Shown one piece after another: positions 1 to 12,191 of a DNA stretch of 32,000 nt; positions within the stretch are counted from its first letter, which is position 1; each line of letters starts with the position of its first letter. The stretch is from assembly GCF_001462395.1 (NCBI RefSeq), contig NZ_LNTB01000001.1, forward strand, positions 450,001-482,000, given 5' to 3'. The position numbers were made by a program, and so were the translations under genes. The notes beneath the pieces are model-generated. The model made no database searches and was not told the origin of the DNA. It saw nothing but the letters and a program-made list of their open reading frames with translations. The DNA is from Pyrodictium occultum. Its GTDB lineage: Archaea; Thermoproteota; Thermoprotei_A; Sulfolobales; Pyrodictiaceae.

Positions 1-169
1 TAGGCTGAGAGCAGGCCTGCAGAGACGGAGAAAACCAGCATAGAACCCGCCTCAACGCGCCGACGTATGTCGAGCAGTACATCCCGGTGTACTATGGCTA
101 CTACAGCGCCCAGCACGCCCATGAGCCCCCGAGGGGCTCTAGAGCACCGAACCCTTCTCCCTTCTTAGC

Positions 170-430
170 CTAGCCGCCCCCAACCACCGGTTCTTCGACA
201 CTCTCTCCGACACCCGCCTTCCCGCGCTTTAACCCGTGCTTGGAGCCTAGACGCTTCTCTACCACGTTCATCTGGTGCTCTCCCTGCAGCATCCTGCCTA
301 CTAGGTATTGCGGAAGCTCGTGGCGTACGAAGGCGTCTATTATCTTTGATTCAGCTCTCCGGAGGAGCTCAGCCAGCGTTGACACCGAGAGCCCAAGGCT
401 CTCCGCGAGCTGCTTGAGGCTTATCCTACG
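170..430 (-). pseudogene. HTH_10 (Bat/DmsR-type) transcription regulator, C-terminal fragment carrying the helix-turn-helix
   Basis: The minus-strand frame reads RRISLKQLAESLGLSVSTLAELLRRAESKIIDAF..., a near-consensus second half of the HTH_10 motif. The track ORF 170..385 only begins at an internal GTG. This frame is 1 nt out of register with the upstream fragment 421..801. Confidence 0.6.
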
Positions 431-801
431 GGGAAGCTATAGTAGCCCATGAAGTAGGCGTATATTATCGCGAGCTCCTGCTTCTCCGTAAGCATATAGG
501 CGTACTCGTCTATGCTATGACTGTGGATTATCTTGCAGCCCCATCTACGTAGCTCCTCGAGAGCGCTGCTGCGGGCTATTATGAACTCATACAGGATGCC
601 TAGAGGCATGAGAACCACCGTCTTAGACATGGCCCCTATAGGGGCCGCTATTAGCGGGCACGCACTGCCCTCCGGCTCTGCCGCGCGTTTACTACAGTAG
701 CTCCTCTTGGAGACGAGTATGCGGAGAATCCTGTTAAACTTAAACTTATTAGAATAGATCCGTAAATCCAGTGCCTCCGTCAGAGCCTTCATCGAGTTCA
801 T
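421..801 (-). pseudogene. HTH_10 transcription regulator, N-terminal fragment
   Basis: It ends ...LTEKQELAIIYAYFMGYYSFP, then VG-stop. The pattern LTxxQxxxxxxAxxxGYYxxP(R) is the first half of the HTH_10 motif. Adding one base to the C4 run (plus-strand GGGG at 430-433) gives ...GYYSFPRRISLKQLAE... and fuses it to 170..430, for about 210 aa in total. The start is placed at ATG 801 (MNSMKAL); the track start at 894 is a longer alternative. Confidence 0.6.
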
Positions 802-862
802 GATGCCCGCCGAGCGAGGGGACGGAACTAATAGCCTTGAGCAATGGGCAGTCAATGTTACG

Positions 863-877
863 TATACAATATATAAC
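863..877 (-). promoter_or_regulatory. TATA-like box upstream of the HTH_10 gene
   Basis: The minus strand reads TTATATATTGTATACG, about 65-75 nt upstream of ATG 801, in an AT-rich patch of an otherwise GC-rich sequence. Confidence 0.3.
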
Positions 878-960
878 GAGCGGCTTGTTAGCATGCATCC
901 CTTAGCACCCCGGGAGCTCTAATACGGGCATTAATTCTGGGGGCGGAATACGTAAATAAA

Positions 961-1010
961 CAGAAATAAGCACAGAAATAAGCAGGGTATGAGGATGAGA
1001 GAGGATGAGA
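961..1010. repeat. Two perfect short tandem duplications (2 x 12 nt cagaaataagca at 961-984; 2 x 10 nt gaggatgaga at 991-1010)
   Basis: Read directly: cagaaataagca|cagaaataagca, then gggtat, then gaggatgaga|gaggatgaga. They lie in the ~230-nt AT-rich non-coding spacer between the protease 3' end and the HTH_10 gene. Confidence 0.9.
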
Positions 1011-1124
1011 AGGGAAACATACTACCAGCTCCACCCGCTTAGTCGCGTGTTATCGAGCATCGTAATTATAAAATATTACTGATGAGTGGCGTCGAGCTAT
1101 AGCGCTTGCCAGCGACACAGGCTA

Positions 1125-1391
1125 CTAGGACCGTCTAGCTAGGGGTAGGCGAGAAAGCACAACGCCCAGTGCTACGCCCAGAGCGCCTGATACGATCCAT
1201 CCTGGTGCACTGGCGGGGGCGTGAGAGTGCGTTAGGACAGTTGCCCCGTGCGGGTTCTGGCTCCTCTCCGGGTTCTCTACTGGCACCGGGCTACCGGTGG
1301 TAACGTAGGTGGCATAGCCGGTGGACTTGTTGCGTGTAGTTTGCGTTCGTGGAGGGCTGCTTGCCGCGTCGCGGGGGTTGAGGCAGATGTG
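1125..1391 (-). pseudogene. Metalloprotease C-terminal fragment: S/T/P-rich linker plus membrane anchor (third frame)
   Basis: A frame not in the ORF track (no start codon) is open for 88 codons. It reads ...NKSTGYATYVTTGSPVPVENPERSQNPHGATVLTHSHAPASAPGWIVSGALGVALGVVLSRLPLARRS-stop (TAG at 1125-1127). This is a linker, a hydrophobic helix and a basic tail, directly continuing the S/T/P-rich end of ORF 1277..1822 in the -1 register. Confidence 0.5.
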
Positions 1392-1822
1392 CTACTATTC
1401 TCGAAGACTTCTATATCTATGAATGGCCAGCTGTCCGCCCTGCTTGCAGCCGCTATGAGAGCCGGGCCTATGCTGGCTTTAAGCCTCTTCCTACACCCCG
1501 AGGGTGCTAGGGAGAGCATTGTTCTAATCAGGTCCAGCAGGCTTACGGGCTTACCGCCGCCCGCCAGCGAGCTGTTGAAGAGCTGGCGTAGGGCTCTCGT
1601 GTATAGGTCCGTGCCGCAGGCATGGACCCCAGCGTACCAGAGGGCGGCATTCATCCTCATCCAGGTGGCGTACGCGTCCCCGGCCTCTATGGAGCCACGC
1701 ACGTAGCTTACTGCCATGCTGTAAAGCCTGGGGTCCGCGTCGTGGAGGGCTTTCAGCGCCAGGAACTCGGTAGCCGCCTCCTCTAAGCTGAAGTCCCGCC
1801 GAGCAGCCCGCTGTTTAGCCAC
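1277..1822 (-). pseudogene. Metalloprotease middle fragment
   Basis: The frame reads (V)AKQRAARRDFSLEEAATEFLALKAL...; the SLEEAATEF segment resembles the WLxEGxAxY third-ligand segment of gluzincins. There is no plausible independent start or signal. It overlaps the HExxH fragment by 40 nt in the -1 register. Confidence 0.55.
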
Positions 1823-2610
1823 CCATGCACCGTCTCGTGGGCCGCTGTGTGCACGAGCCAGGGGAGATCCACCTGGAGTAAGCCCGTCTTAATGTAGACC
1901 ATTCCCCCAGTGCTATGGCCGCTCTTGGGGAGCTGCAGTGGCTGCCCCTCAGGGTCGACGAGCACCACTAGCACTGGGGAGCGGGGGCTAGGGCCCAGCC
2001 ACTGGGATACGAGGGAGCGGACGACGGCTACCACGTGTGCCGCATAGCTAGCTGTTTTACCGGGTAGCCTGCTAGAGTATATTATTGTCAGTCCCGTGCT
2101 GCTGTTATCCACCACGTGGTAGCTCGAGGCATCGGCCACCACTACGCTGTCGAAGACGTAGTACCTGGCCAGCATGCGCAGGGGCACACGGTAAGGGCCC
2201 CCGGGGGGCCCGTAGCCACGCCAGTCCATAGCGCTTCTAGCCAAGTAGCCTCTCGGAGCATTAACCGTCACAACCGCCGGTGCGCCGCCGCTAGCCCGGC
2301 TTATGGACTCCAGCCTGGCAGCGGCCTGGGGGCAAACCGTGTCGAGAATGTAGTAGAGCGGTGCTGCCACGAGGCTTCTGGAGATGTCGCGTGTCTCGAT
2401 GTAGTAGATGTTTGGTCTCAGCACGCCAGTGCAGCCGACATCCAGGCCGGGGCCCCGTAGCTCCACGTGCACCCTCCAGGAGGAGTCGTCTATGGGCTTG
2501 AGGAAGTCTATCCTTAGGCTGTAGCTTCCCTGGTGGGCCTGGACTGCGCTGAAAGCTAGCGCAGGCATTAGGAGCGCCAGGGCCGCGGCTGCGGCGCGGG
2601 CTTGCCTCAT
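1783..2610 (-). pseudogene. Secreted zinc metalloprotease (HExxH, M1-like signature), N-terminal fragment
   Basis: It has an N-terminal signal peptide, MRQARAAAAALALLMPALAFSAVQA. It ends ...LVHTAAHETVHGWLNSGLLGG TSA-stop. HETVHGWxN (HExxH at 1825-1839) matches the HExxHxW..N pattern of M1/M61-type peptidases. Confidence 0.65.
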
Positions 2611-2762
2611 CCTGGACTCCCTTCCCGAGGACGCCTAGGCGCGGGCTCCGTAGCCCTAGGGCTAGGGCTTGAGGCTCTCAAGGCGGGTGGAGGAGGGGTT
2701 GGAGAGGCCGGGTATGGAGAGGTAAAAAGCCTTGGCGCGGGTGACGGCTAGCGGGAGGGCTG

Positions 2763-3494
2763 CTAGCTCCTCCTGTACACGATGGCTATGCCTAGGGCTA
2801 TTACTGCCAGGGCTAGCGCTATTCCGCCTAGCGTGTAGGATGCTGTGGCTACGCTGTCAATCTTGCTGCTCAGCTTGTCTATCTTGCTGCTTATCTCCTC
2901 GGCTATGCTTAGAGCCTGGCCAGCCTTGCTGCTGGCCTCCTTGGCCTCGTTGCTAGCCTTCCCCGCCCTAGCGCTGGCCTCCTGGGTCTTGCTGCTTAGT
3001 GTCTGCAGCTGGCTGGTCACCCGCTTTATCTGCTCTACAACCTGCTCTATGTTCTTGGCCTGGGGGCTTATAGCTTCAAGCTGCTTACTCAGTTCCTCGA
3101 GCTGCTTCACTAGCTCGTTCACATTAGTCTTCAGAGTGCTTACATCACTCTTTAGCACATCCACCTCAGCGGCGGCGCCCTCAACGCTCTCTAGCCGGCT
3201 CTTTAGGGCTGGCACCTGCGCGTTGAGGGCAGCTATCTCCGCCTTTAAGGTCTCTATCTCACGCTCTATCTGCGCTATCTTCGCTGCCAGCTCGGGCGTA
3301 TACTTGCCGCCTGCAGCGGCCTTGAGGCTCTGCAGCTCGGTCTGCAGCATCTTTACCTTCAGGTTGAGGGCTATCCAGTTGGTCATCTTACCGAGGGCCT
3401 CCATCACTGTGTCGACTATGCCGAACCAGTGCGCGTAGTCGGGACCCATCATCATGGCACCGTTCCTCCAGCGGCGGCCCTGGTGGTGCCACAT
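2763..3494 (-). CDS. Coiled-coil protein with a C-terminal transmembrane anchor (SlaB/tetrabrachion-like stalk architecture)
   Basis: 243 aa. About 170 aa of heptad-like, Ala/Glu/Lys/Leu/Ser-rich sequence (LQTELQSLKAAA...IAQIEREIETLKAEIAALNAQVPALKSRLE...KIDKLSSKIDS) is followed by GGIALALAVIALGIAIVYRRS-stop. The ATG lies 8 nt after the cytochrome stop codon. There is no N-terminal signal peptide. Confidence 0.7.
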   Translation of the reverse strand: MWHHQGRRWRNGAMMMGPDYAHWFGIVDTVMEALGKMTNWIALNLKVKMLQTELQSLKAAAGGKYTPELAAKIAQIEREIETLKAEIAALNAQVPALKSRLESVEGAAAEVDVLKSDVSTLKTNVNELVKQLEELSKQLEAISPQAKNIEQVVEQIKRVTSQLQTLSSKTQEASARAGKASNEAKEASSKAGQALSIAEEISSKIDKLSSKIDSVATASYTLGGIALALAVIALGIAIVYRRS

Positions 3495-3502
3495 ATGTAG
3501 TA

Positions 3503-4378
3503 CTACATTATCTCCGGGAACTCGTCCAGCTTGTTGGTCGGATCTGCTATGCCCTCCTTCCAGGACAGCTGTAGCAGGCCGTATGCGAACTTAGCCACTA
3601 TGTCGTAGTCTATTATGTTCTGGTCGGCTGTGCGGAAGAAGTTGTCTGCCCACTGCGAGCTGTGGCAGAGCTTGCACACCTTCTTCATCTCTTCACGGTG
3701 CTTGGCCAGCTCGCCGCTATACTCTATCTTCAGCAGCCTCGGGAACTTAGTCTCGCCGGGGGCGGGGCCCTCCACTATCTTGAAGCCCATGAACACTGGG
3801 TACCGGTACTCCGGCGGGGCGTTGGGGTTCTTGTGGGCCTCTATGTCCTCGGCCTTGCCGGCGAGCTGGCTCCAGCCGTAGAAGAGCGCCAGCTGCACCT
3901 TGTCGGGTATTATGCCCTTGGGTATGCTGAAGAAGTGCATCTCGTCCCATACAAGCCTGTTTTCAAGGTCGTGCGTGCCCTTCACAACTATCCTGCCGTC
4001 AGGGGTTGCTATTGTACTTATATGGCAGGTAGCGCAGGTAGGCGCGTTGAAGTCGCTGCCCGCATGCCACGGCAGGGTCTCCCAGTTCCACTTCTCGCCG
4101 TAGGCGTGCTCTATGTTACCATGGGCGCTCTCCTCGTAGATCTCTATGTGCGGGTGGCCGTAGCCTAGGTGGCAGCGGCCACAGGTCCACGGTTCGCGAG
4201 CCTGCTTGAGGCTGAAGAGGTGCCTATCATGGCACGCGGTGCAGGTGCCTATGCTGCCGTCGGGGTCTACACGGGCTGCGCCATTGTTAGGCCAGCCCCA
4301 TAGGGCTACCCTGTTGACTGTGAGGCCGCGGAGCTGAACCGTCTCCTTCTTGTAGGGCACCACTATGGTGCCGGGCAC
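3503..4378 (-). pseudogene. Octahaem cytochrome c (HAO-superfamily-like), C-terminal fragment with haem motifs 5-8
   Basis: It contains CTACH, CGRCH, CATCH and CKLCH. The context (GTCTACHDRHxFS, WTCGRCHLG, CKLCHSS) is typical of hydroxylamine-oxidoreductase-type multihaem proteins. The apparent start is a GTG inside the preceding fragment's broken CXXCH. Confidence 0.8.
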
Positions 4379-5157
4379 TCGCCACAGGCGTGGTAGATGT
4401 AGCCGTTCCTAAAGTACGGGTGCTCCATTATGTTGCTTATAGACTTGCTCACCTTGCCATCCATTGTTGTGACAGTTATCTTTATGCCAAGCCTGCTGAG
4501 GACTGTGGTGTTCAGTACGCCGCTGGCAGGCCACAGCGGGCTTATCCAGTTCTTGAAGTCCATGTCGTAGGGGGTCACCATGCCGGTAGCCTGCTTAAGC
4601 ATCTTTACTATATCGTTCTCCCTGCCGGTTTCAAGGTACTCCATTACAGCCTTAGCTATGTCCTTGTAGAAGTCCCAGTCTACCTCGTCCTTGTCGCGCT
4701 GCTTGAGCAGGTAGGGCGGGAAGTACTTGAGGTACAGCTGCTTGGCCTTGACGTCGCCGAAGGGGTTTGCGCCCTGCTTCTTGGCCCAGGCTAGTATGCC
4801 CTTATACCAGGGTAGGAACGGTGAGTGCAGAGTGCCAGTGACGTGCCAGGTCCAGCTTATCTCGGCAGCCTCCTTGGGGTGGCACCGGCTACAGTCCTTC
4901 TTGGTCACTATTGTTACTATCCTGTAGCCGAAGTGGTTCTCTATCACGTCGGGCCTATCCTGCACCTTGAACATGCCGTGGCACTCATAGCAGCCTACAA
5001 CGTAAGGGTAGTTCTTGAACTTGGCAGCTATCTTGTCCGCCCACTCGGCGGCTCCAATGGCCTTGTAGAGGTCTGCCGCCTCCGCGGGGGTCGCCTGGGC
5101 GTGCTTGCTGTTAGCCCACTCGTAGACTATGCCGGGCGTGTACTGGACGTGACAAGC
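4363..5157 (-). pseudogene. Octahaem cytochrome c, middle fragment (haem motifs 2, 3 and the truncated motif 4)
   Basis: The frame is open from just after an in-frame TAA (5158-5160): ACHVQYTPGIVYEWANSKHA...GCYECHG MFKVQ...DCSRCHP...YHACGEC PAP-stop. The track ORF (4363..4974) starts only at the internal Met after CYECHG. Confidence 0.75.
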
Positions 5158-5336
5158 TTAGACAAGCCTTTGTCTGCGGGCTCACCTTGTCGCTCCGCAT
5201 TAGCTCCTGTACCTTCTTCACCAGCTGGTCGCCGAATACCACATTGTCGTCCTCGGCATGCGCCGCGGGCGCCAGGGCTGCCACTGCGAACAAGAGTATA
5301 GCTTAATGCGACCCCTGCTAGGAGGAGCCTCCTCAT
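5111..5336 (-). pseudogene. Octahaem cytochrome c, N-terminal fragments (signal peptide and first half of haem motif 1, in two frames)
   Basis: ATG 5336 is preceded by GGGAGGG and reads MRRLLLAGVAL.... The +1 register continues ..LLFAVAALAPAAHAEDDNVVFGDQLVKKVQELMRSDKVSPQTKACLS... Joined, they give a classical n-h-c signal peptide ending AHA. Confidence 0.6.
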
Positions 5337-5557
5337 AGCTTGGTGCCCTCCCTAACACAACCGTGGTAATAAGTTGAATATCCATAGTGTACAACTAGTT
5401 ATGTTTGGATCCCTAATCTTTCGGAGCCCACCGGGGCATGCCATAACACGCTACATCAATTATTTTAACCTATGTTGTTATTCCGGTGCTCCTCCAAGCC
5501 GCCGCTGCAGCGAATAATAGCCGTAATACCTGCCCGGAGAGCCGGCGGGGAGAATCC

Positions 5558-6343
5558 ATGGCCTTCGGGATCCAGGGCCTACGGGTTCTCGTCACCGCGT
5601 CCACACGGGGCATAGGCCATGGAGTAGCGGAGGTGCTTCTCGAAGAGGGCGCCAGGGTGGTGATCAACGGGCGTAACCGCGAGAGGATTGAGGAGGCGCT
5701 GGAGGGGCTCCGGGGCAGAGGCGAGGTCTACGGAGTGGCTGCTGATCTCACCAGGAGGGATGACGTCAAGAGGCTTGTAAACAACGCCGCCAAGCTTCTA
5801 GGAGGCCTCGACGCAGTGGTCTACGTCACGGGGCCTCCGAGGCCCGGTGTCTTCGAGGAGCTTGGGCTCGAGGACTGGGATTATGCCGCCAGGCTTCTGG
5901 TCATGAGCGCCGTCTGGGTTGCTTACTACGCGCTGCCATACCTCAGGGAGAGCAGTAGGCCGAGCCTAGTCTATGTTACCAGCGTGGCCACTAAGGAGCC
6001 TGTGGAGGGGCTTACGCTCTCAAACGCGCTCAGGATAGCCGTGCACGGGCTAGTCAAGACGCTCTCCAGGGAGCTCGGCCGGCACGGTATTAGGGTTAAC
6101 GCCGTGATGCCGGGCTACATTATGACCGATCGGGTCCGGCAGCTGGCTGAGAGGAGGGCCCGGCGGGAGGGGCGTAGCCCGGAGGAGGTGCTCCGTGACA
6201 TCGCCGCCTCCGTGCCCCTGGGGAGAATCGGGGAGCCTAGGGAGGTTGGCTACCTGGTGGCGTTTCTCCTGAGCCCCTACGCCGGCTACATAAACGGGGC
6301 CTCGATACCGGTCGATGGCGGGCTCCTCCACTCGGTCTTCTAG
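5558..6343 (+). CDS. Short-chain dehydrogenase/reductase (SDR) family protein
   Basis: MAFGIQGLRVLVTASTRGIGHGVAEVLLEEGARVVINGRN carries the TGxxxGxG-type Rossmann motif, and ...GIRVNAVMPGYIMTD is also typical. ATG 5558 is preceded by GGGGAG; the 5486 GTG extension in the track looks non-coding. Confidence 0.8.
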   Translation: MAFGIQGLRVLVTASTRGIGHGVAEVLLEEGARVVINGRNRERIEEALEGLRGRGEVYGVAADLTRRDDVKRLVNNAAKLLGGLDAVVYVTGPPRPGVFEELGLEDWDYAARLLVMSAVWVAYYALPYLRESSRPSLVYVTSVATKEPVEGLTLSNALRIAVHGLVKTLSRELGRHGIRVNAVMPGYIMTDRVRQLAERRARREGRSPEEVLRDIAASVPLGRIGEPREVGYLVAFLLSPYAGYINGASIPVDGGLLHSVF

Positions 6344-6379
6344 TAGATAGAACACTTAGAGCCCCTAATGCACCCCGCA

Positions 6380-6397
6380 CAGCCCTCCGCAGGGCTG
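6380..6397 (+). other. Perfect 7-bp hairpin (cagccct-ccgc-agggctg) abutting the start region of the next gene
   Basis: Read directly. The stems at 6380-6386 and 6391-6397 are exact reverse complements with a 4-nt loop, followed by ggggaATG (6403). Confidence 0.5.
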
Positions 6398-6402
6398 GGG
6401 GA

Positions 6403-7836
6403 ATGGCCGCGGGAAGGACTACCGGCGCCGGTGTGGTGCGTGTCAGGATACGCGGCATCTACGCTACAGCGCTGACTAGGCTGGCTCTGGACTACGGGTT
6501 CCAGGTTGTGCAGGCCTCAAGGGTTATCGCAGGCCGGTTCGGCATACCCCAGCTGACGCTCCCTGCCGACGTCACACTGAAGAACAGTGATAGCGACCCA
6601 TCAGAGCTCGTGGTTGTAGGCTATACTTGGGCTGTCGAAAAGGTTCTGGAGAAGCTTAGGGAGACCCTGCCCTATTCATTCTACTGGCGCAGCCGCCTAC
6701 CGCTCCACGCCACCGTCAAGGCCAGGGTGAGGGGCCGGGCCAGCGGCGAGGCGTGCATAGCCGAGGTGGAGGGGGTTGAAGCCGAGCTTGCGGACGAAGA
6801 GGGCTGCGAGCCTGGGAGGGAGGTTGTAGCCTCCGTTGTGAGGCCTGGAGTGAAGCCGTGGGAGAGGCCACGCCTCGCCCTGGGGGCGCGCGTCATAGGG
6901 GATTATGCGATACTCTTCGAGTCCCCCCGGCCTAGGGTGACGGTAAGCGAGCATGTAAGGATGCAGGAGAAGAGGGCCGAGTTAGCGGCTCTGGCCACGG
7001 AGTACACTAGCCGGGGGCTGAGCGTCCACTGGAGGAGCAGCAGCCAGCACGCCGACGCCGAGACCCTGCGGAGACACCTCGAAGAGCTGCACCAAGCGCT
7101 CCTCGAGGCCAGGGAGAGGGCTGAGAGGGGCGGCCCCGGCGTCTACACGCCGGGCGAGACGGTGGCCGTCGTGAGGCTGAGCAGCCTGGACAAGGCTACG
7201 CTGGACACGGTGAGAGACAAGGTGACCCCAACCATAGAGCTGCATCACAGCGTGAAGAGCCTCGCACCGAGCATCTCCACTGTTGTGGACTACGCGGAGA
7301 AGCTCAAGGCGCGGGGCGTGGACCCGGCGCTGCTCCGGGAGGCCCTGCTCGACACTATGGGGGAAATGCTTTCCTCAAGGCGCAGCGTCAGGATTATCCA
7401 TGTTAAGCTTGACGGTAGGGTGGTGGAGCTCGGCCGGGGCGAGGTTAGAAGTATCTACCGGGAGAACGGCCGCCTCATAGTCGTCATTGAGAGGCGGGTA
7501 CGGAGCCGCGGCGTCTACGACGGGCTTGGAGCCGAGAAGGAGCCCGGAGACAGAATAGTAACGGAGATTGACACAGGCTCCTGGCTTGTGAAGCACACCT
7601 ACTACTCTAGGAACGGCTGGGTAAAGGGCATATACGTCAACGTGAACACGCCCCCAGAGGTGGCGGAAGATGCCTTGGTATATCTAGACCTAGAAGTAGA
7701 CGTTGTGAAGAAGCCGGGGGAGAAGCCACGCCTCATAGACGAGGATGAGCTGAAGAAGGCACTTGAATCGGGGATAGTTACGGAGAAGCTCTACCGGGAG
7801 GCGCTTGAGAAGGCTAGAAAGGCGCTGGGAGACTAA
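6403..7836 (+). CDS. FAU-1-like RNA-binding protein / probable ribonuclease (RNase E/G-like N-terminus plus DUF402-like C-terminus)
   Basis: 477 aa. The N-terminus VRVRIRGIYATALTRLALDYGFQVVQAS matches the characteristic start of archaeal FAU-1. The C-terminal GIYVNVNTPPE...LDLEVDV is DUF402-like. The true start may be GTG at 6433/6436. Confidence 0.6.
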   Translation: MAAGRTTGAGVVRVRIRGIYATALTRLALDYGFQVVQASRVIAGRFGIPQLTLPADVTLKNSDSDPSELVVVGYTWAVEKVLEKLRETLPYSFYWRSRLPLHATVKARVRGRASGEACIAEVEGVEAELADEEGCEPGREVVASVVRPGVKPWERPRLALGARVIGDYAILFESPRPRVTVSEHVRMQEKRAELAALATEYTSRGLSVHWRSSSQHADAETLRRHLEELHQALLEARERAERGGPGVYTPGETVAVVRLSSLDKATLDTVRDKVTPTIELHHSVKSLAPSISTVVDYAEKLKARGVDPALLREALLDTMGEMLSSRRSVRIIHVKLDGRVVELGRGEVRSIYRENGRLIVVIERRVRSRGVYDGLGAEKEPGDRIVTEIDTGSWLVKHTYYSRNGWVKGIYVNVNTPPEVAEDALVYLDLEVDVVKKPGEKPRLIDEDELKKALESGIVTEKLYREALEKARKALGD

Positions 7837-7839
7837 CCG

Positions 7840-7847
7840 TTATAAAG
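7840..7847 (+). promoter_or_regulatory. TATA box (TTATAAAG) for the tRNA-Leu gene
   Basis: An AT-rich octamer lies about 45 nt upstream of the mature tRNA 5' end, compatible with an archaeal TATA at about -26 plus a short leader. Confidence 0.4.
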
Positions 7848-7888
7848 CCCCATAATGCCGGGAGACTTTTGCATGGAGCCTGCTGGGC

Positions 7889-7976
7889 GCGGGGGTGCCC
7901 GAGCCAGGTCAAAGGGGGCGGGCTCAGGACCCGCTGGCGTAGGCCTGCGTGGGTTCAAATCCCACCCCCCGCACCA
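7889..7976 (+). tRNA. tRNA-Leu (anticodon CAG), genomically encoded CCA
   Basis: Folded by hand. The acceptor GCGGGGG (7889-7895) pairs with CCCCCGC (7966-7972), with discriminator A and CCA. The anticodon stem gcggg/cccgc has the loop cTCAGga (CAG at 7925-7927, U33 and G37 present). There is a long variable arm, and the T arm is gtggg-ttcaaat-cccac. Confidence 0.9.
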
Positions 7977-8119: not shown

Positions 8120-8323
8120 TTGCAGCGGATAGTCACGTTCAAGATAGAGGAGGACGTGCTAGCCGTGCTAGACCGCTATGCTAGGATGCGTAGGCTGACC
8201 CGAAGCGAGGTGATAAGGGAGGCTATAGAGAGGCTTCTAAGGAGCGAGGGTATAGAGGTGCCCAAGAGCCGTAACAGTGTAAGGTACGATCCCCGCGCGC
8301 CCGTGATAGAGGTACCAGTCTAG
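8120..8323 (+). CDS. Ribbon-helix-helix (CopG/MetJ-type) DNA-binding protein
   Basis: 67 aa. [38 protein letters not shown] is a textbook beta-strand/helix/helix RHH pattern. It has a TTG start. Confidence 0.65.
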
Positions 8324-8853: not shown

Positions 8854-9276
8854 GTGGGCGAGAGGGCTAGCCCGGATGTAGTACGCCGTATGGCAGACCT
8901 GCTGCGCGCTGGCGCCGCCATGCTCCCGGAGCGCTGCCCTATCTGCGGCCTCCCTCTCTTCCGGCTGCGGAGCGGCGAGGTGGTCTGCCCGGTCCACGGG
9001 AGGGTCTACATTGTTAGGGATGAGAGCGAGGCCTCTAAGGTCACAGTGCAGGGCGTGCTTGAGGAGCTCGAGAAGTTTGTCGCCTATAGGCTGAGCGAGG
9101 CTATGAGGCGCGCGGAGGCTGGGCAGGAGCCTGCAGCGATTGACGAGATACGTGGGTGGCTTGATGTGCTGGAGAGGGTTGAGCGCATCCTAGGCATGGT
9201 GTCAGTGTCGCTCGGCGAGGAGCGCCGCGGCGAGGAGAGAGGGCCCTCGGAGCCGAGGAGGAGGGGGAGGCGCTAA
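8854..9276 (+). CDS. UPF0148 / autoantigen-p27-like zinc-ribbon protein
   Basis: MADLLRAGAAMLPERCPICGLPLFRLRSGEVVCPVHG is the family signature. The start is uncertain (GTG 8854 or ATG 8890); the track start at 8773 is probably too long. Confidence 0.65.
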   Translation: MGERASPDVVRRMADLLRAGAAMLPERCPICGLPLFRLRSGEVVCPVHGRVYIVRDESEASKVTVQGVLEELEKFVAYRLSEAMRRAEAGQEPAAIDEIRGWLDVLERVERILGMVSVSLGEERRGEERGPSEPRRRGRR

Positions 9277-9695
9277 CACTCCACGATGAGCATGGCGCTG
9301 GGCGGCTTGGAGTATAGCCTGGCCCGGCAGCCGTCCCTCAGTTCCTCCAGGAGCCTGGGGGGTAGCCCGGAGGCCAGCGGCACCGACGCCATCACCGCCC
9401 CTGCGACCAGTATCGGCTCGGCCTCGACCACCGCTATGGCTGAGGGGGCTAGGCCGCGGCGGGCTAGGGCGTAGAGGATGTAGGGGCCTACCGTGCTGCC
9501 CCTCCCACCCTCCATTATGAGCACCCTCCCGGCTATGCTGCGGCCGTCGGTCAGGGTGCCGCGCTCCGGGTCAACCTCGCCGTAGAAGGAGAGCCTGCCG
9601 TGGACCACGAGAGTCTCTCCGGAGCCGTTGCCCTCGACGATGCCGCGCAGCTTCACACGTCTCTCCGGCACCGCGCCGCACCCCGGCGGGGCCAA
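9273..9695 (-). CDS. Aconitase-X swivel-domain protein (DUF126); candidate phosphomevalonate dehydratase small subunit
   Basis: LSFYGEVDPERGTLTDGRSIAGRVLIMEGGRGSTVGPYILYALARRGLAPSAIAV is the DUF126 pattern. It lies 6 nt downstream of the DUF521 gene. The true start is possibly an internal GTG (VKLRGIV). Confidence 0.7.
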   Translation of the reverse strand: MAPPGCGAVPERRVKLRGIVEGNGSGETLVVHGRLSFYGEVDPERGTLTDGRSIAGRVLIMEGGRGSTVGPYILYALARRGLAPSAIAVVEAEPILVAGAVMASVPLASGLPPRLLEELRDGCRARLYSKPPSAMLIVEC

Positions 9696-9701
9696 GCCCT
9701 G

Positions 9702-10886
9702 CTAGGCGCCGTAAGCCTTGACGAAATCCTCTAGGGAGGCAAGGGCCACCCTTACGCCATGTCGCCTCGGCAGGTAGAACGCCGATTTCACCGAGTCGGT
9801 TGCTATGGCCTTCAAGCCGCTCCTACCCAGCGTGCTCACCACTAGGCAGGTCCCGGGGAGGATGCGTATATTCCGCCTCGCCAGCTCCCCCGCAAGCGTC
9901 GCCAGAGGCCTAGAAGCCCTGCCAGGCACTGCTATCCACACCGGCCGCCGGAGCCTAGACACCCCGTGAGCCTCCATCAACTCCAGGACGCGGTTTACCA
10001 CGTGCTCCGGGTGGTGAGGACAGCCGGTGAAGAATAGCTCGGCCTCATCCAGGCTAGCGGACTCGACCTCCTCCCGAGCCTCCCGCAGATCATCGGGGCC
10101 TAGCGCCGCTCTCTCGACGCCCCCCGGCGGCCCCTGATCCTCGGGAGACACGTGGCGCACTACACACATCGCCGTGCTGCCGGAGGCGGCTGCCGCCGCG
10201 CACATGGCTATGACCTGGCGCTTTGTTAGCCTCCCCGCATCTAGGTAGGGGAGCTCGCCCGAGAACAGCTTGCCTATCATGTAACCGAGCAGCCCTGCCT
10301 CCACCTCGCCCCTCGGCAGGGTCTCGACCCTCACGGTGATAGTTGGGCGCCGGTTTTCCTCCAGGTGAAGGCCCCAGAGGTAGGTCCTCCCGACCAGCGC
10401 GGCGGCGAGCGCTACGGGGCCGCCCTCCCTGTTGGTCCTGGCCCCATAGAGAGTGTTAGCCACCGCTACCGCGCTCGACTCGCCCCATGCCAGGTGCTCT
10501 CCGGGCCTAGGCCTGCGCAGCGCGTAGGGTATACAGGTCCCGCTGGGCTCGAACCCCATACGGAGGAGGGCCTTCACTATCCTGGCCTGCTTCTCCACAT
10601 GCTCCCTCGGCACAGGGTAGGGGGGATCCATGCCCAGCGGGGCGCCGGCGGGGTTGAATGTAGAGTAGACCGCTACCCTCCCGCCGGAAGCCAGGCCCTC
10701 TATGAACTCGAGGCCCGGGTCTCCTATGTTGCTGTACGACACGCCGCTGACATGCGCATGGCTTATCCTTATGAGCCTTTCCGCTCCAAGAGCCTCGCCT
10801 ATGCGGACGAGGAGCTTCATAGCCAGCTGGCGGGCCGGGCCCTCCTCGCCCTTGAGGATGCGCTCCTCCTCCCGGGTGAGGTACAT
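9702..10886 (-). CDS. Aconitase-X catalytic-domain protein (DUF521); candidate phosphomevalonate dehydratase large subunit
   Basis: 394 aa. The N-terminus MYLTREEERILKGEEGPARQLAMKLLVRIGEALGAERLIRISHAHVSG is typical of DUF521/AcnX. It is followed directly by its DUF126 partner. Confidence 0.75.
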   Translation of the reverse strand: MYLTREEERILKGEEGPARQLAMKLLVRIGEALGAERLIRISHAHVSGVSYSNIGDPGLEFIEGLASGGRVAVYSTFNPAGAPLGMDPPYPVPREHVEKQARIVKALLRMGFEPSGTCIPYALRRPRPGEHLAWGESSAVAVANTLYGARTNREGGPVALAAALVGRTYLWGLHLEENRRPTITVRVETLPRGEVEAGLLGYMIGKLFSGELPYLDAGRLTKRQVIAMCAAAAASGSTAMCVVRHVSPEDQGPPGGVERAALGPDDLREAREEVESASLDEAELFFTGCPHHPEHVVNRVLELMEAHGVSRLRRPVWIAVPGRASRPLATLAGELARRNIRILPGTCLVVSTLGRSGLKAIATDSVKSAFYLPRRHGVRVALASLEDFVKAYGA

Positions 10887-10889
10887 GGC

Positions 10890-12191
10890 TCAGCTGCTAC
10901 CCCCTATCCTAGGCCTGGTGTACCTTTCACGCTCGCGTATAGGGGCTGTAGCGTCCAGGACAAGCTTGTAGGTTAGCCCCTCCCTGGCACTCGGATCAAG
11001 CGTGGAGCCCCTAGCATGAGGGATAACGACTAGCCCCCTGTCAGCCTGGAACCTGGTGGCTATGGCCCACTCGACCTCCCACGGGTCATCGGGGTCTATA
11101 TCGCTGTCTACAACAACCACGTGCTTGAGGCTGGGATGAGCTGCTAGCGCCGCGAGGCCGGCAGTCTTCCCATCGCCATCATGCTGCTTCTCGATAGAGA
11201 TCACAGCATGCAGCCACATACCCCCCGCGGGGGTGAGCCGCACCTTCCTCACATGAGGCACAGTGCGCGCCACAGCCTCGTATATCGCAGCCTCCCTGGG
11301 GAACCCCATTAGCATCATGTGCTCGTAGCCGCCGGGCAGTATTACATGCATGTAGGGCTTGTAGACCTTGTTTACATAGACGTGCTCCACATGGAGCACG
11401 GGCTCCTCCCTGGCCCGGTCGTAGAGCTGGAGGAGGTCTACGAAGGGGCCCTCCGGCGCCCGGTCGGGGCCCAGCCTAGCCTCAATAACCATCGAGGAGC
11501 CGCAGGGCACCGGCAGCCCGTGGAGGGGAGTACGGCAAACAGCCAGGCCGCCTAGGAGGGCAGAGGCTATGCCCAGCTCGAACACGCCGTAGGAGGGGCT
11601 CGAAGCCGCGGCCAGAAGAACGCGGGGGTCGACACCTATGACAACCGCTACCGGGAGCCCCTTGTCCCCCGCCTCGCGGAGCATCCTGTAGAGGTGGCGG
11701 GGTACAACCCTTACAGCTGCATAGCTCTTATCATCGCTCACCATTATTCTATGTATGGAGGCGTTGCACACATCCCCCCTACATGCTATAAATATCGACG
11801 AGGTGACGTAAGATCCCCCATCCTTCTCGTAGAACCGCAGGGCTGGGAGGAGGGAGACCCCGGAGCCGGCCTCCTCGAAGAAGCTGCTGAACCGGCGCTC
11901 CTCGAAGCCCCCCGGGCTGGATAGGGCACGGGAGAGCCTGGAGTAGGCCTCCACATCGCTGCCCGCGCCGAGGGCCCAGTAGAGTGTCTCCCTCCCAGCT
12001 ATCAGGTTTGAAGCGAAGGGCCACCCGAAGCCCCTTACACGATACACCACTATACCGCGGCCGTCATACTGTTTTATCAAGCGTGCGGCCTCGTAGCGGG
12101 GATCGAGGGGCTCTGGAGCCTCCACAAGCTTGGCTCCACGGCTTCTGGCCTCCTCAAGGAACAGCTCCACGGAAGCATCTATATTACGCAT
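10890..12191 (-). CDS. UbiD-family decarboxylase; candidate trans-anhydromevalonate-5-phosphate decarboxylase
   Basis: 433 aa with UbiD motifs (EGPFVD, HAVISIEKQ..GDGK, KHVVVVDSDIDPDDPWEVEWAIATRFQADR). It lies 3 nt upstream of the AcnX genes. Confidence 0.75.
   Translation of the reverse strand: MRNIDASVELFLEEARSRGAKLVEAPEPLDPRYEAARLIKQYDGRGIVVYRVRGFGWPFASNLIAGRETLYWALGAGSDVEAYSRLSRALSSPGGFEERRFSSFFEEAGSGVSLLPALRFYEKDGGSYVTSSIFIACRGDVCNASIHRIMVSDDKSYAAVRVVPRHLYRMLREAGDKGLPVAVVIGVDPRVLLAAASSPSYGVFELGIASALLGGLAVCRTPLHGLPVPCGSSMVIEARLGPDRAPEGPFVDLLQLYDRAREEPVLHVEHVYVNKVYKPYMHVILPGGYEHMMLMGFPREAAIYEAVARTVPHVRKVRLTPAGGMWLHAVISIEKQHDGDGKTAGLAALAAHPSLKHVVVVDSDIDPDDPWEVEWAIATRFQADRGLVVIPHARGSTLDPSAREGLTYKLVLDATAPIRERERYTRPRIGGSS

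Follow-up and report, generated by a model that had tools for sequence, protein, structure and literature searches.

Genes at the locus and sequences compared

A stretch of 32,000 nt of the Pyrodictium occultum chromosome (NZ_LNTB01000001.1, positions 450,001 to 482,000), referred to here as the window, carries at its left end three adjacent genes, which in their intact form encode an octahaem c-type cytochrome, a zinc peptidase and a transcription regulator with an HTH_10 domain. An exact-sequence look-up placed the window in the chromosome of strain PL19T, for which the draft genome is LNTB01 (proteins KSW117xx / CF15_024xx-026xx). All three genes are broken in this sequence, and the disrupted frames all lie on the minus strand within positions 170-5336 (Table 1). 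As judged by alignment with intact alleles, nine disabling lesions and one in-frame duplication of 6 nt affect them. A preliminary description of the window, made from its letters alone, had listed six disruptions; these are among the nine, and the stop codon, the 2-nt duplication and the 167-nt deletion had been missed.

The LNTB01 genome was sequenced on the Illumina MiSeq platform only (22.5 million read pairs, average 276 nt, for a 1.6-Mb genome) and assembled with SPAdes 3.1.0, followed by read-mapping extension and a Geneious "superassembly" that led to two contigs (PMC4767911). The read count, read length and genome size in that report correspond to an estimated coverage of ~3800x. Lesions were called from assembled sequences, by comparison of the window with independent contigs. 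The comparison alleles were Logan contigs from the read sets SRR5453782 (L001), DRR667394 (L054) and ERR15087784 (L056 and L057); window positions 1-7907 were aligned globally to L001, after which L054 and L056 were brought in to give three- or four-way alignments.

Contig L001 (10,978 nt) is 99% identical to the window and has all three genes intact. Its gene order is DUF402 (477 aa), SDR (261 aa), cytochrome (842 aa), a 495-aa protein, the HTH_10 regulator (296 aa), a CcmB-like permease and a 519-aa thioredoxin protein. The same gene set is present in L054, with a cytochrome of 856 aa, and ERR15087784 yields short contigs at the locus. Intact alleles in near-identical strains, a comparison called for in the preliminary description, were found in SRR5453782 and DRR667394. 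They share 98-99% identity with the window, and encode a cytochrome of 842 or 856 aa, the 495-aa peptidase and the 296-aa regulator.

Table 1. Positions of the disrupted genes, their lesions and adjoining features in the window.
Feature	Position	Strand	Basis or remark
Pseudogene, stalked octahaem c-type cytochrome (HAO/IhOCC family)	2763..5336	-	PDB 4qo5 match and intact alleles
+1 insertion in signal-peptide coding region (MRRLLLAGV.L / AILLFAVAALAPAAHA)	5303	-	Common to SRR5453782 and ERR15087784, absent from DRR667394
+1 insertion (T to TT); parts of haem-1 motif CLSCH fall in different frames	5154/5155	-	Alignment
-1, loss of an isolated A (TGCCACGG to TGCCCGG), which takes out the His codon in haem-4 motif CGECH	4373/4374	-	Alignment
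Nonsense mutation, TGG>TAG	3504 (codon 3503..3505)	-	W597 of P0001, equal to W611 in the cytochrome of 856 aa
+2 tandem duplication (TG), nine bases past the nonsense codon	3490..3493	-	What follows is read in the frame of ORF 2763-3494
Detached C-terminal third of the cytochrome: WHHQGRRWRNG...MGPDYAHW segment, coiled coil, transmembrane anchor	2763..3494	-	4qo5 alignment, orthologues
Pseudogene, secreted zinc metallopeptidase with C-terminal transmembrane anchor, M1/M61-like fold (HExxH-x19-E)	1125..2610	-	Intact alleles P0143 and P0146, 495 aa
-1 deletion (G4 to G3), 9 codons past the second His of HExxH	1794..1798	-	Alignment
-1 deletion (G3 to G2), Ser/Thr/Pro-rich linker ahead of the transmembrane anchor	1363..1366	-	Alignment
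Pseudogene, HTH_10 transcription regulator	170..898	-	Intact form 296 aa, HTH_10 domain at residues 190-242
167-nt deletion junction, frame-shifting; residues ~46-101 lost (56 codons)	762/763	-	Alignment
6-nt tandem duplication (TAAGTT), in frame	734..748	-	Alignment
-1 deletion (C5 to C4, coding strand), HTH_10 domain split	429..434	-	Alignment
-1 deletion, cytochrome-peptidase spacer	2733..2736	.	Alignment; an ERR15087784 contig ends exactly here
HTH_10-peptidase spacer, 7 private substitutions	899..1124	.	Alignment
-1, intergenic	1121-1123	.	Alignment; also in ERR15087784, as is substitution 1117
+1, intergenic	1070-1073	.	Alignment
10-nt tandem duplication, intergenic	991-1010	.	Alignment
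Start of CcmB-like ABC-2 permease, which opens the adjoining set of cytochrome c maturation genes	1..116	-	Intact within the window
Second divergent patch, inside the intact DUF402/RNase-G-like gene	6803..7613	+	7 private substitutions (5 synonymous), no indel
tRNA-Leu(CAG), right-hand limit of the divergent tract	7889..7976	+	Only 8013 and 8022 differ just past it

Lesions in the three genes

In the intact cytochrome of 856 aa, a Sec-type signal peptide and eight CxxCH motifs are followed by a coiled coil of ~175 aa, with a transmembrane (TM) anchor at the C-terminus, and the two intact alleles, P0001 (842 aa, SRR5453782) and P0139 (856 aa), are 98% identical. When the reconstructed cytochrome was used as the query in a homologue search, P0001 came back at 98% identity, and orthologues of 835-882 aa, each a single polypeptide, were found in P. 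delaneyi, Hyperthermus, Pyrolobus and many metagenome-assembled genomes (MAGs) of Pyrodictiaceae; the eight CxxCH motifs stand in conserved order in the intact alleles and the orthologues alike. The closest solved structure is 4qo5 (IhOCC of Ignicoccus hospitalis; E = 5e-73), and HAO, HDH and related structures match at 1e-8 to 1e-16. The Pfam profile Multi-haem_cyto scores 70 bits on the cytochrome and is recognised in the 291-aa fragment that remains in the window.

The alignment with 4qo5 crosses the stop codon at 3503 and continues into the open reading frame (ORF) 2763-3494, which had been described as a separate, intact gene for a coiled-coil membrane stalk. Since every Pyrodictiaceae orthologue of 835-882 aa contains the WHHQGRRWRNG segment, the coiled coil and the TM anchor within one protein, this ORF is the C-terminus of the cytochrome, cut off by the nonsense codon and the 2-nt duplication beside it. 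Hence the locus holds three genes, all broken, and not four with three broken. Relatives of ~640 aa, such as that of Ignicoccus, are without the stalk. The coiled coil would act as a stalk within the pseudoperiplasm, on which the haem domain, probably a trimer, is raised tens of nanometres from the membrane.

The tryptophan replaced by the stop codon is invariant in 24 orthologues, and another private substitution of the cytochrome changes a nearly invariant residue (V411A). A private exchange of Asp for Ala (window position 5024) affects an aspartate that is conserved in four aligned orthologues and is not among the flagged invariant columns. The insertion in the signal-peptide coding region, which the preliminary description had given as the first disruption of the gene, differs from the other lesions: it is real in relation to DRR667394, where the ancestral signal peptide MRRLLLAGV(T)LAILLF...AHA is retained, and to the outgroups, which likewise have a long signal peptide, but it is shared with two read sets and is not private to PL19T.

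Besides its signal peptide, the peptidase carries a Ser/Thr/Pro linker and, at the C-terminus, a TM anchor. The residues H254/H258-E259-x-x-H262 and E278/E282 are invariant in the alignment of its family. No Pfam match was obtained, Peptidase_M1 included, and a profile search against PDB sequences also gave none; the GxMEN exopeptidase motif is absent from the family alignment, in which SxGG(V/M)VY stands in its place. An AlphaFold2 model (mean pLDDT 70.6, ordered core at residues 30-390) was compared with known structures using Foldseek, and the top match was an M61 peptidase (7xyo, E = 4e-10), followed by M1 aminopeptidases with values up to 1e-6, all with a probability of 1.0 and TM-scores of only ~0.4. 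On this model the peptidase is M1/M61-like in fold, and it is not a demonstrated member of M1. A sequence search returned only six homologues, and those with a source name are from Pyrodictium.

The regulator starts at ATG 898; the start at ATG 894 assigned to it in the preliminary description is out of frame. The intact allele reaches 69.7 bits for the HTH_10 domain (cut-off 23.1), and in the 157-aa fragment of the window only the N-terminal half of the domain is recognised, at 20.2 bits and thus below the cut-off. The N-terminal ~190 residues gave no Pfam match, and neither GAF nor PAS was detected in them.

Clustering of the lesions and the clean remainder of the window

Window positions 1-5340 contain 12 indels and one nonsense codon that are private to the window in the three-way alignment with L001 and L054 (from which the shared insertion at 5303 is excluded), together with 55 private substitutions at 36-5154. 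Positions 7948-32000, by comparison, are free of gaps relative to contigs of two independent samples, with 6 mismatches over 20.7 kb in SRR5453782 and ~20 over 24 kb in DRR667394. Three-way polarisation leaves 4 window-private substitutions there (8013, 8022, 14262 and 26377) and 0 indels, and the genes in this part match their Pfam profiles over essentially their full length and form complete ORFs in the independent contigs. The clustering is significant by the Fisher test, both for the indels (P = 5e-9) and for the substitutions (P = 7e-30), which bears out, and strengthens, the earlier observation that the disrupted frames all lie on one strand within the first 5.3 kb and that the remainder is clean.

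Between these two parts, at 5341-7947, the sole indel is in a poly-G run just upstream of the ATG at 6403. This run (6396-6401), one base upstream of the start codon of the DUF402/RNase-G-like gene, ranges from G5 (the window) through G6 (SRR5453782, ERR15087784) to G11 (DRR667394). Its variation in length could affect the initiation of translation of the DUF402 gene.

Long homopolymers are unaffected. Among the 116 runs of at least 5 nt in the window, none is altered except one strain-polymorphic run; all 15 such runs in 1-5340 are untouched, and only 2 of the 9 single-base indels fall in runs of at least 4. The three homopolymer sites pointed out in the preliminary description, at 430-433, 1795-1800 and ~5154, are correct as placed.

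Within the divergent tract as a whole, which continues to the left of the window, the indels are specific to certain genes. They are present in the genes for the cytochrome, the peptidase, the HTH_10 regulator and a thioredoxin (Trx)-cyt c-CcdA fusion, and none occurs in SDR, DUF402, the CcmB-like gene or CcmF. To the left of the window (CF15_02435-02450), the genes for the CcmB-like protein (223 aa) and for CcmF (1001 aa, 98% identical) are unbroken, and the Trx-cyt c(CSACH)-CcdA fusion, which has 519 aa in the sister strains, is split by a frameshift in LNTB01 into 187 + 337 aa (KSW11697 and KSW11696), with one codon lost. The split of this fusion indicates that the divergent tract and part of the decay reach beyond the left edge of the window.

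The lesions were also looked for elsewhere. Exact products of the broken ORFs (the 243-aa coiled coil and the 275-aa peptidase fragment) had no match among independent contigs, in an index in which several housekeeping proteins were likewise unmatched. A scan of metagenomes with a pattern spanning the nonsense codon and the 2-nt duplication returned only a relative of 77% identity, in which the site is intact.

A divergent haplotype in a mosaic population

The density of private substitutions is 1.0% in 36-5154, zero in 5155-6802, 0.9% in 6803-7613 and 0.02% beyond the tRNA-Leu gene. The divergent tract covers at least 8 kb of the window and extends leftwards. It is ~50-fold more diverged from the sister strains than the flanking DNA, and by rough arithmetic synonymous divergence is ~2-4% in the peptidase and HTH_10 genes and <0.1% in the flanks. 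All Logan contigs of the three samples break inside the tRNA-Leu(CAG) gene. Directly after it lies a small gene of the RHH_1 (CopG-like) type at 8120-8323 (plus strand), and the private substitutions 8013 and 8022 fall between the two.

Counts of synonymous and non-synonymous private substitutions are 9:5 in the peptidase gene, 8:7 in the HTH_10 gene and 5:2 in the DUF402 gene, as compared with a random expectation of at most 0.34 synonymous. The excess of synonymous changes (P = 0.008 for peptidase and HTH_10; P = 0.001 with DUF402 added) argues that the tract is a natural allele that has been mostly under purifying selection. The cytochrome gene has 10 non-synonymous changes and 1 stop against 3 synonymous ones, and the intact DRR667394 allele of the same gene has 9 against 4.

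Eleven of the variants that appear private to the window, including the 1-nt deletion at 1121, recur in mosaic blocks in contig L057 of ERR15087784. This contig begins exactly at the junction of the 167-nt deletion and ends exactly at the 2735 indel, which in both cases are the last bases common to both alleles. Such end points suggest a mixed population, as they are what a de Bruijn graph would give if both alleles were present in the ERR15087784 reads.

Lesions of its own are found in ERR15087784. A -1 at ~3984 in L056 ends the cytochrome at 460 aa, and a -4 at 2071-2074 in L057 divides the peptidase into 192 + 303 aa; both sit on a haplotype that mixes window-like and SRR5453782-like variants. 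The -1 at 3984 is 123 nt from the end of the contig, and an artefact of the contig tip is accordingly less likely. A further patch, with ~26 private differences (~1%) that are partly common to ERR15087784, spans 4019-6533 in DRR667394, where all genes are intact. This patch on intact genes is evidence of mosaicism through recombination at this locus in the population.

So many lesions cannot have accumulated in the short interval since the flanks of these strains diverged. Either an allele with a long separate history, and already partly decayed, was imported, or such an allele was retained while the flanks were homogenised. The inactivation that the preliminary description called real and recent is therefore recent in a relative sense only, as the lesions lie on an older haplotype ~50-fold more diverged than its surroundings; that it is real, and not an error of sequencing chemistry, is supported.

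Conserved neighbourhood and related systems

The intact proteins were compared by tblastn with 44 related loci. The peptidase gene follows the cytochrome gene in the same order and on the same strand in all nine Pyrodictiaceae loci that have a stalked orthologue and enough flanking sequence (L002, L003, L005-L010 and L017). The HTH_10 gene comes next in all seven loci with further flank, and the Ccm genes come next in L002, L005 and L017. In this search the peptidase gene adjoins the cytochrome gene in Pyrodictiaceae loci only; more distant paralogous clusters keep the HTH_10 gene and not the peptidase gene, and tblastn found neither at the Ignicoccus locus. The earlier proposal that the genes form one functional unit is thus upheld by their conserved order, for a unit of three genes with adjoining maturation genes in place of the four genes first named. 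An origin as a mobile island was ruled out by the same gene order in P. delaneyi, which includes the SDR and DUF402 flanks, and by an unremarkable GC content.

The closest characterised protein, IhOCC (Igni_0955; PDB 4QO5), shares with the cytochrome the eight CxxCH motifs in the same order and the C-terminal segment WYYIWHHxGRRWRNG...MGPDY. The Pyrodictiaceae orthologues differ from it by an insertion of ~140 residues between haems 3 and 4, the coiled coil of ~175 residues and the TM anchor, and the homologue P0034 of I. hospitalis (638 aa) ends soon after the conserved C-terminal segment, without coiled coil or anchor; the cytochrome gene of the window further differs in being a pseudogene. 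Igni_0955 occurs in soluble and membrane fractions and can be reduced by the native hydrogenase, and its role in vivo is unknown (Kletzin et al. 2015, PMC4429474). According to the same report, the H2:sulfur complexes of P. abyssi and P. brockii contain cytochromes of the c type. A role in electron transfer at the surface or in the pseudoperiplasm, as proposed earlier, remains plausible, as the nearest structure is that of this membrane-associated octahaem protein.

The P. delaneyi orthologue P0002 (852 aa) is 73% identical to the cytochrome, and a P. delaneyi MAG has a like gene order of DUF402, SDR, cytochrome, peptidase, HTH_10, CcmB-like and Trx-cyt c genes. An octahaem cytochrome, Pyrde_0496, was detected in nitrate- and Fe(III)-grown P. 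delaneyi, and belongs to the cluster Pyrde_0485-0496 with the monohaem Pyrde_0492 (Kashyap and Holden 2021, PMC8105010). Pyrde_0496 is probably the cytochrome orthologue, to judge by gene order: the Trx-CcdA fusion has a CSACH motif and lies four genes from the cytochrome, and the spacing of Pyrde_0492 and Pyrde_0496 fits this arrangement. The P. delaneyi genes are intact, and would then also be expressed, and those of P. occultum PL19T are broken.

The peptidase resembles M1 and M61 gluzincins (ERAP1, tricorn factor F3 and the Myxococcus M61 enzyme 7XYO) in a predicted N-terminal beta domain and a thermolysin-like catalytic domain with HExxH and a downstream Glu. It differs from them in the lack of a sequence match and of GxMEN, and in having a signal peptide, a linker and a TM anchor. 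The regulator, which had been called Bat/DmsR-type, shares with haloarchaeal Bat and DmsR a C-terminal HTH_10 domain and a gene position adjoining respiratory genes. The name was over-specific, as the P. occultum protein has no detected GAF or PAS, an unmatched N-terminal part and a crenarchaeal host.

Further to the right in the window, at 9273-12191 on the minus strand, the small and large subunits of AcnX (named phosphomevalonate dehydratase in UniRef) adjoin a gene for a UbiD-family decarboxylase. Together they make up the gene set of the modified archaeal mevalonate pathway.

Origin of the broken genes

The lesion spectrum is unlike that of Illumina or homopolymer error: it comprises the deletion of a lone base, length changes within runs 1-5 nt long, tandem duplications (2, 6 and 10 nt), a deletion of 167 nt and a nonsense mutation. 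Spontaneous mutation spectra in hyperthermophilic crenarchaea are dominated by +/-1 changes in short runs, tandem duplications and deletions. Those reported for Sulfolobus acidocaldarius consist mainly of +/-1 frameshifts in short runs and tandem duplications, and the PL19T lesions resemble them. Given the Illumina platform and the untouched long runs, homopolymer-prone chemistry, which the preliminary description had allowed as an alternative, is effectively excluded. The synonymous excess in the peptidase and HTH_10 genes and the recurrence of the eleven variants in ERR15087784 further argue that the tract is natural and not an error. These data point to genuine pseudogenisation of the surface cytochrome module in PL19T, on a naturally divergent haplotype, and we regard this as the likely explanation.

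Several observations weigh against it. No independent contig directly shows the private disabling lesions, and the support of ERR15087784 for the 167-nt deletion is indirect. The published assembly made use of manual contig extension and "superassembly". The intact alleles come from read sets in the SRA without strain or culture assignment. At ~1%, the substitution density of the tract greatly exceeds that expected from neutral decay over the time since the flanks separated, and it requires recombination or a long-separate allele. The private changes of the cytochrome gene are indistinguishable from random error by codon position, and none of them recurs in ERR15087784.

The PL19T genes might be intact in reality, and the frameshifts errors due to poor or mixed data at this place, such as a haplotype from a minor component or a contaminant that was incorporated in the manual superassembly. 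The way in which LNTB01 was finished and the lack of the disabling lesions from independent contigs speak for such an artefact of assembly or consensus, as does a window-like, unbroken peptidase segment in ERR15087784, from which it follows that neither the 1365 nor the 1797 frameshift is a necessary part of the haplotype. Illumina data at this depth are not prone to indels, however, and the 24-kb flank has none; neither the nonsense codon and the long deletion nor the three sizes of tandem duplication, next to untouched long homopolymers, would be expected from this source. SDR, DUF402, the CcmB-like gene and the 3-kb CcmF gene are free of indels in the same tract, which by our own arithmetic has a probability of ~1e-3 under uniform error, and both the eleven variants and two indel branch points are echoed in ERR15087784. 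An artefact is thus considered improbable. Still less credence is given to a single burst of error-prone synthesis (patch repair by a Y-family polymerase, or break-induced replication) that mutated ~5 kb at once, with neither prolonged neutral decay nor the import of an allele. The tract has ~1e-2 substitutions and ~2e-3 single-base indels per nt, and is alone in this; such rates are of the order reported for Dpo4-type polymerases in vitro, and the random pattern of the cytochrome changes by codon position would also fit. A burst does not account for the synonymous excess in peptidase, HTH_10 and DUF402, nor for the many variants that are standing polymorphisms in the mosaic blocks of ERR15087784, nor for the 1.65 kb without private change (5155-6802) that breaks the tract. 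Moreover, the patch of ~1% in DRR667394 at 4019-6533, with the gene intact, marks patchy divergence as a property of the population.

That the fragments still function, as split genes or through programmed frameshifting or readthrough, is hardly credible. Clean motifs are kept in each piece, several pieces are listed as separate proteins in GenBank and RefSeq, and the break between Trx and cyt c-CcdA is at a domain boundary and could be tolerated. Against this, four or five recoding events would be needed in the one cytochrome gene, haem motifs 1 and 4 are split across frames, the HTH_10 domain is halved and 56 codons of its gene are deleted, and hundreds of homologues are single polypeptides. 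Programmed frameshifting was rejected in its own right, as the sister strains are simply without the indels and no recoding signals are conserved.

Under pseudogenisation on a divergent haplotype, the intact module, as present in the sister strains, consists of the exported octahaem cytochrome on its coiled-coil stalk, the anchored peptidase and the HTH_10 regulator, followed by Ccm genes (CcmB-like, Trx-cyt c-CcdA and CcmF). It may have become dispensable in the lineage of PL19T, an obligate H2/S0 chemolithoautotroph, a step that we infer together with the order of events. The genes would then have gathered mutations, while purifying selection kept the interspersed housekeeping genes intact. 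All three genes would now be dead, the cytochrome gene also carrying the older, shared frameshift in its signal peptide, and the lesions would have been added to a divergent allele with an older and separate history, in a mosaic formed by homologous recombination that ends near tRNA-Leu. Clustered pseudogenes of a dispensable pathway are known from reductive decay, and the locus shares with them several lesions in linked neighbours, intact relatives and untouched flanking housekeeping genes; it differs in that the decay is on a recombination-mosaic haplotype ~50 times more diverged than its flanks, and in the other lesions found in other read sets.

A more far-reaching possibility, put forward tentatively and rated as rather doubtful, is that the module is a recurrent target of loss in P. 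occultum, through selection or through exchange of dead and live alleles, and not a case of passive drift in one strain. This reading draws on the signal-peptide frameshift in 3 of the 4 read sets, the -4 and -1 lesions of ERR15087784 and eight further private lesions of PL19T. For instance, a haem-rich surface protein may be costly or harmful during H2/S0 growth or laboratory passage, and alleles may be exchanged within the Vulcano population.

Annotation and implications

Pieces of the broken genes are annotated as separate proteins, namely KSW11700 (123 aa, HTH_10), KSW11702 (275 aa, peptidase), KSW11704 (291 aa) and KSW11705 (203 aa), the last two both from the cytochrome, and WP_ equivalents exist. 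They are not marked as pseudogenes in GenBank or RefSeq, and the truncated sequences have passed into UniRef and cluster databases, where the names "Cytochrome C" and "Peptidase M1 ... domain-containing protein" rest on truncated pieces. The true gene models are the 856-aa stalked cytochrome, the 495-aa peptidase and the 296-aa regulator.

The locus is a well-supported example of a known phenomenon, local gene loss, and not a new kind of system; it illustrates the combination of a recombination mosaic and pseudogenisation in a hyperthermophile. The intact protein, whose HAO-type octahaem domain is borne by a long coiled coil, is a clear case of such a stalked architecture in the archaeal pseudoperiplasm. 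It is always accompanied by a dedicated anchored peptidase and an HTH_10 regulator, and research on archaeal extracellular electron transfer thereby gains a defined module. Synthesis of the octahaem cytochrome is apparently not possible in the type strain of the organism that was the first to be grown above 100 C, which would mean that this cytochrome is not required for H2/S0 chemolithoautotrophy, and this constrains models of the cytochrome-containing sulfur-reducing complexes in other Pyrodictium species. If the loss is indeed recurrent, the octahaem cytochrome would not be part of the essential H2:sulfur respiratory chain of Pyrodictium.

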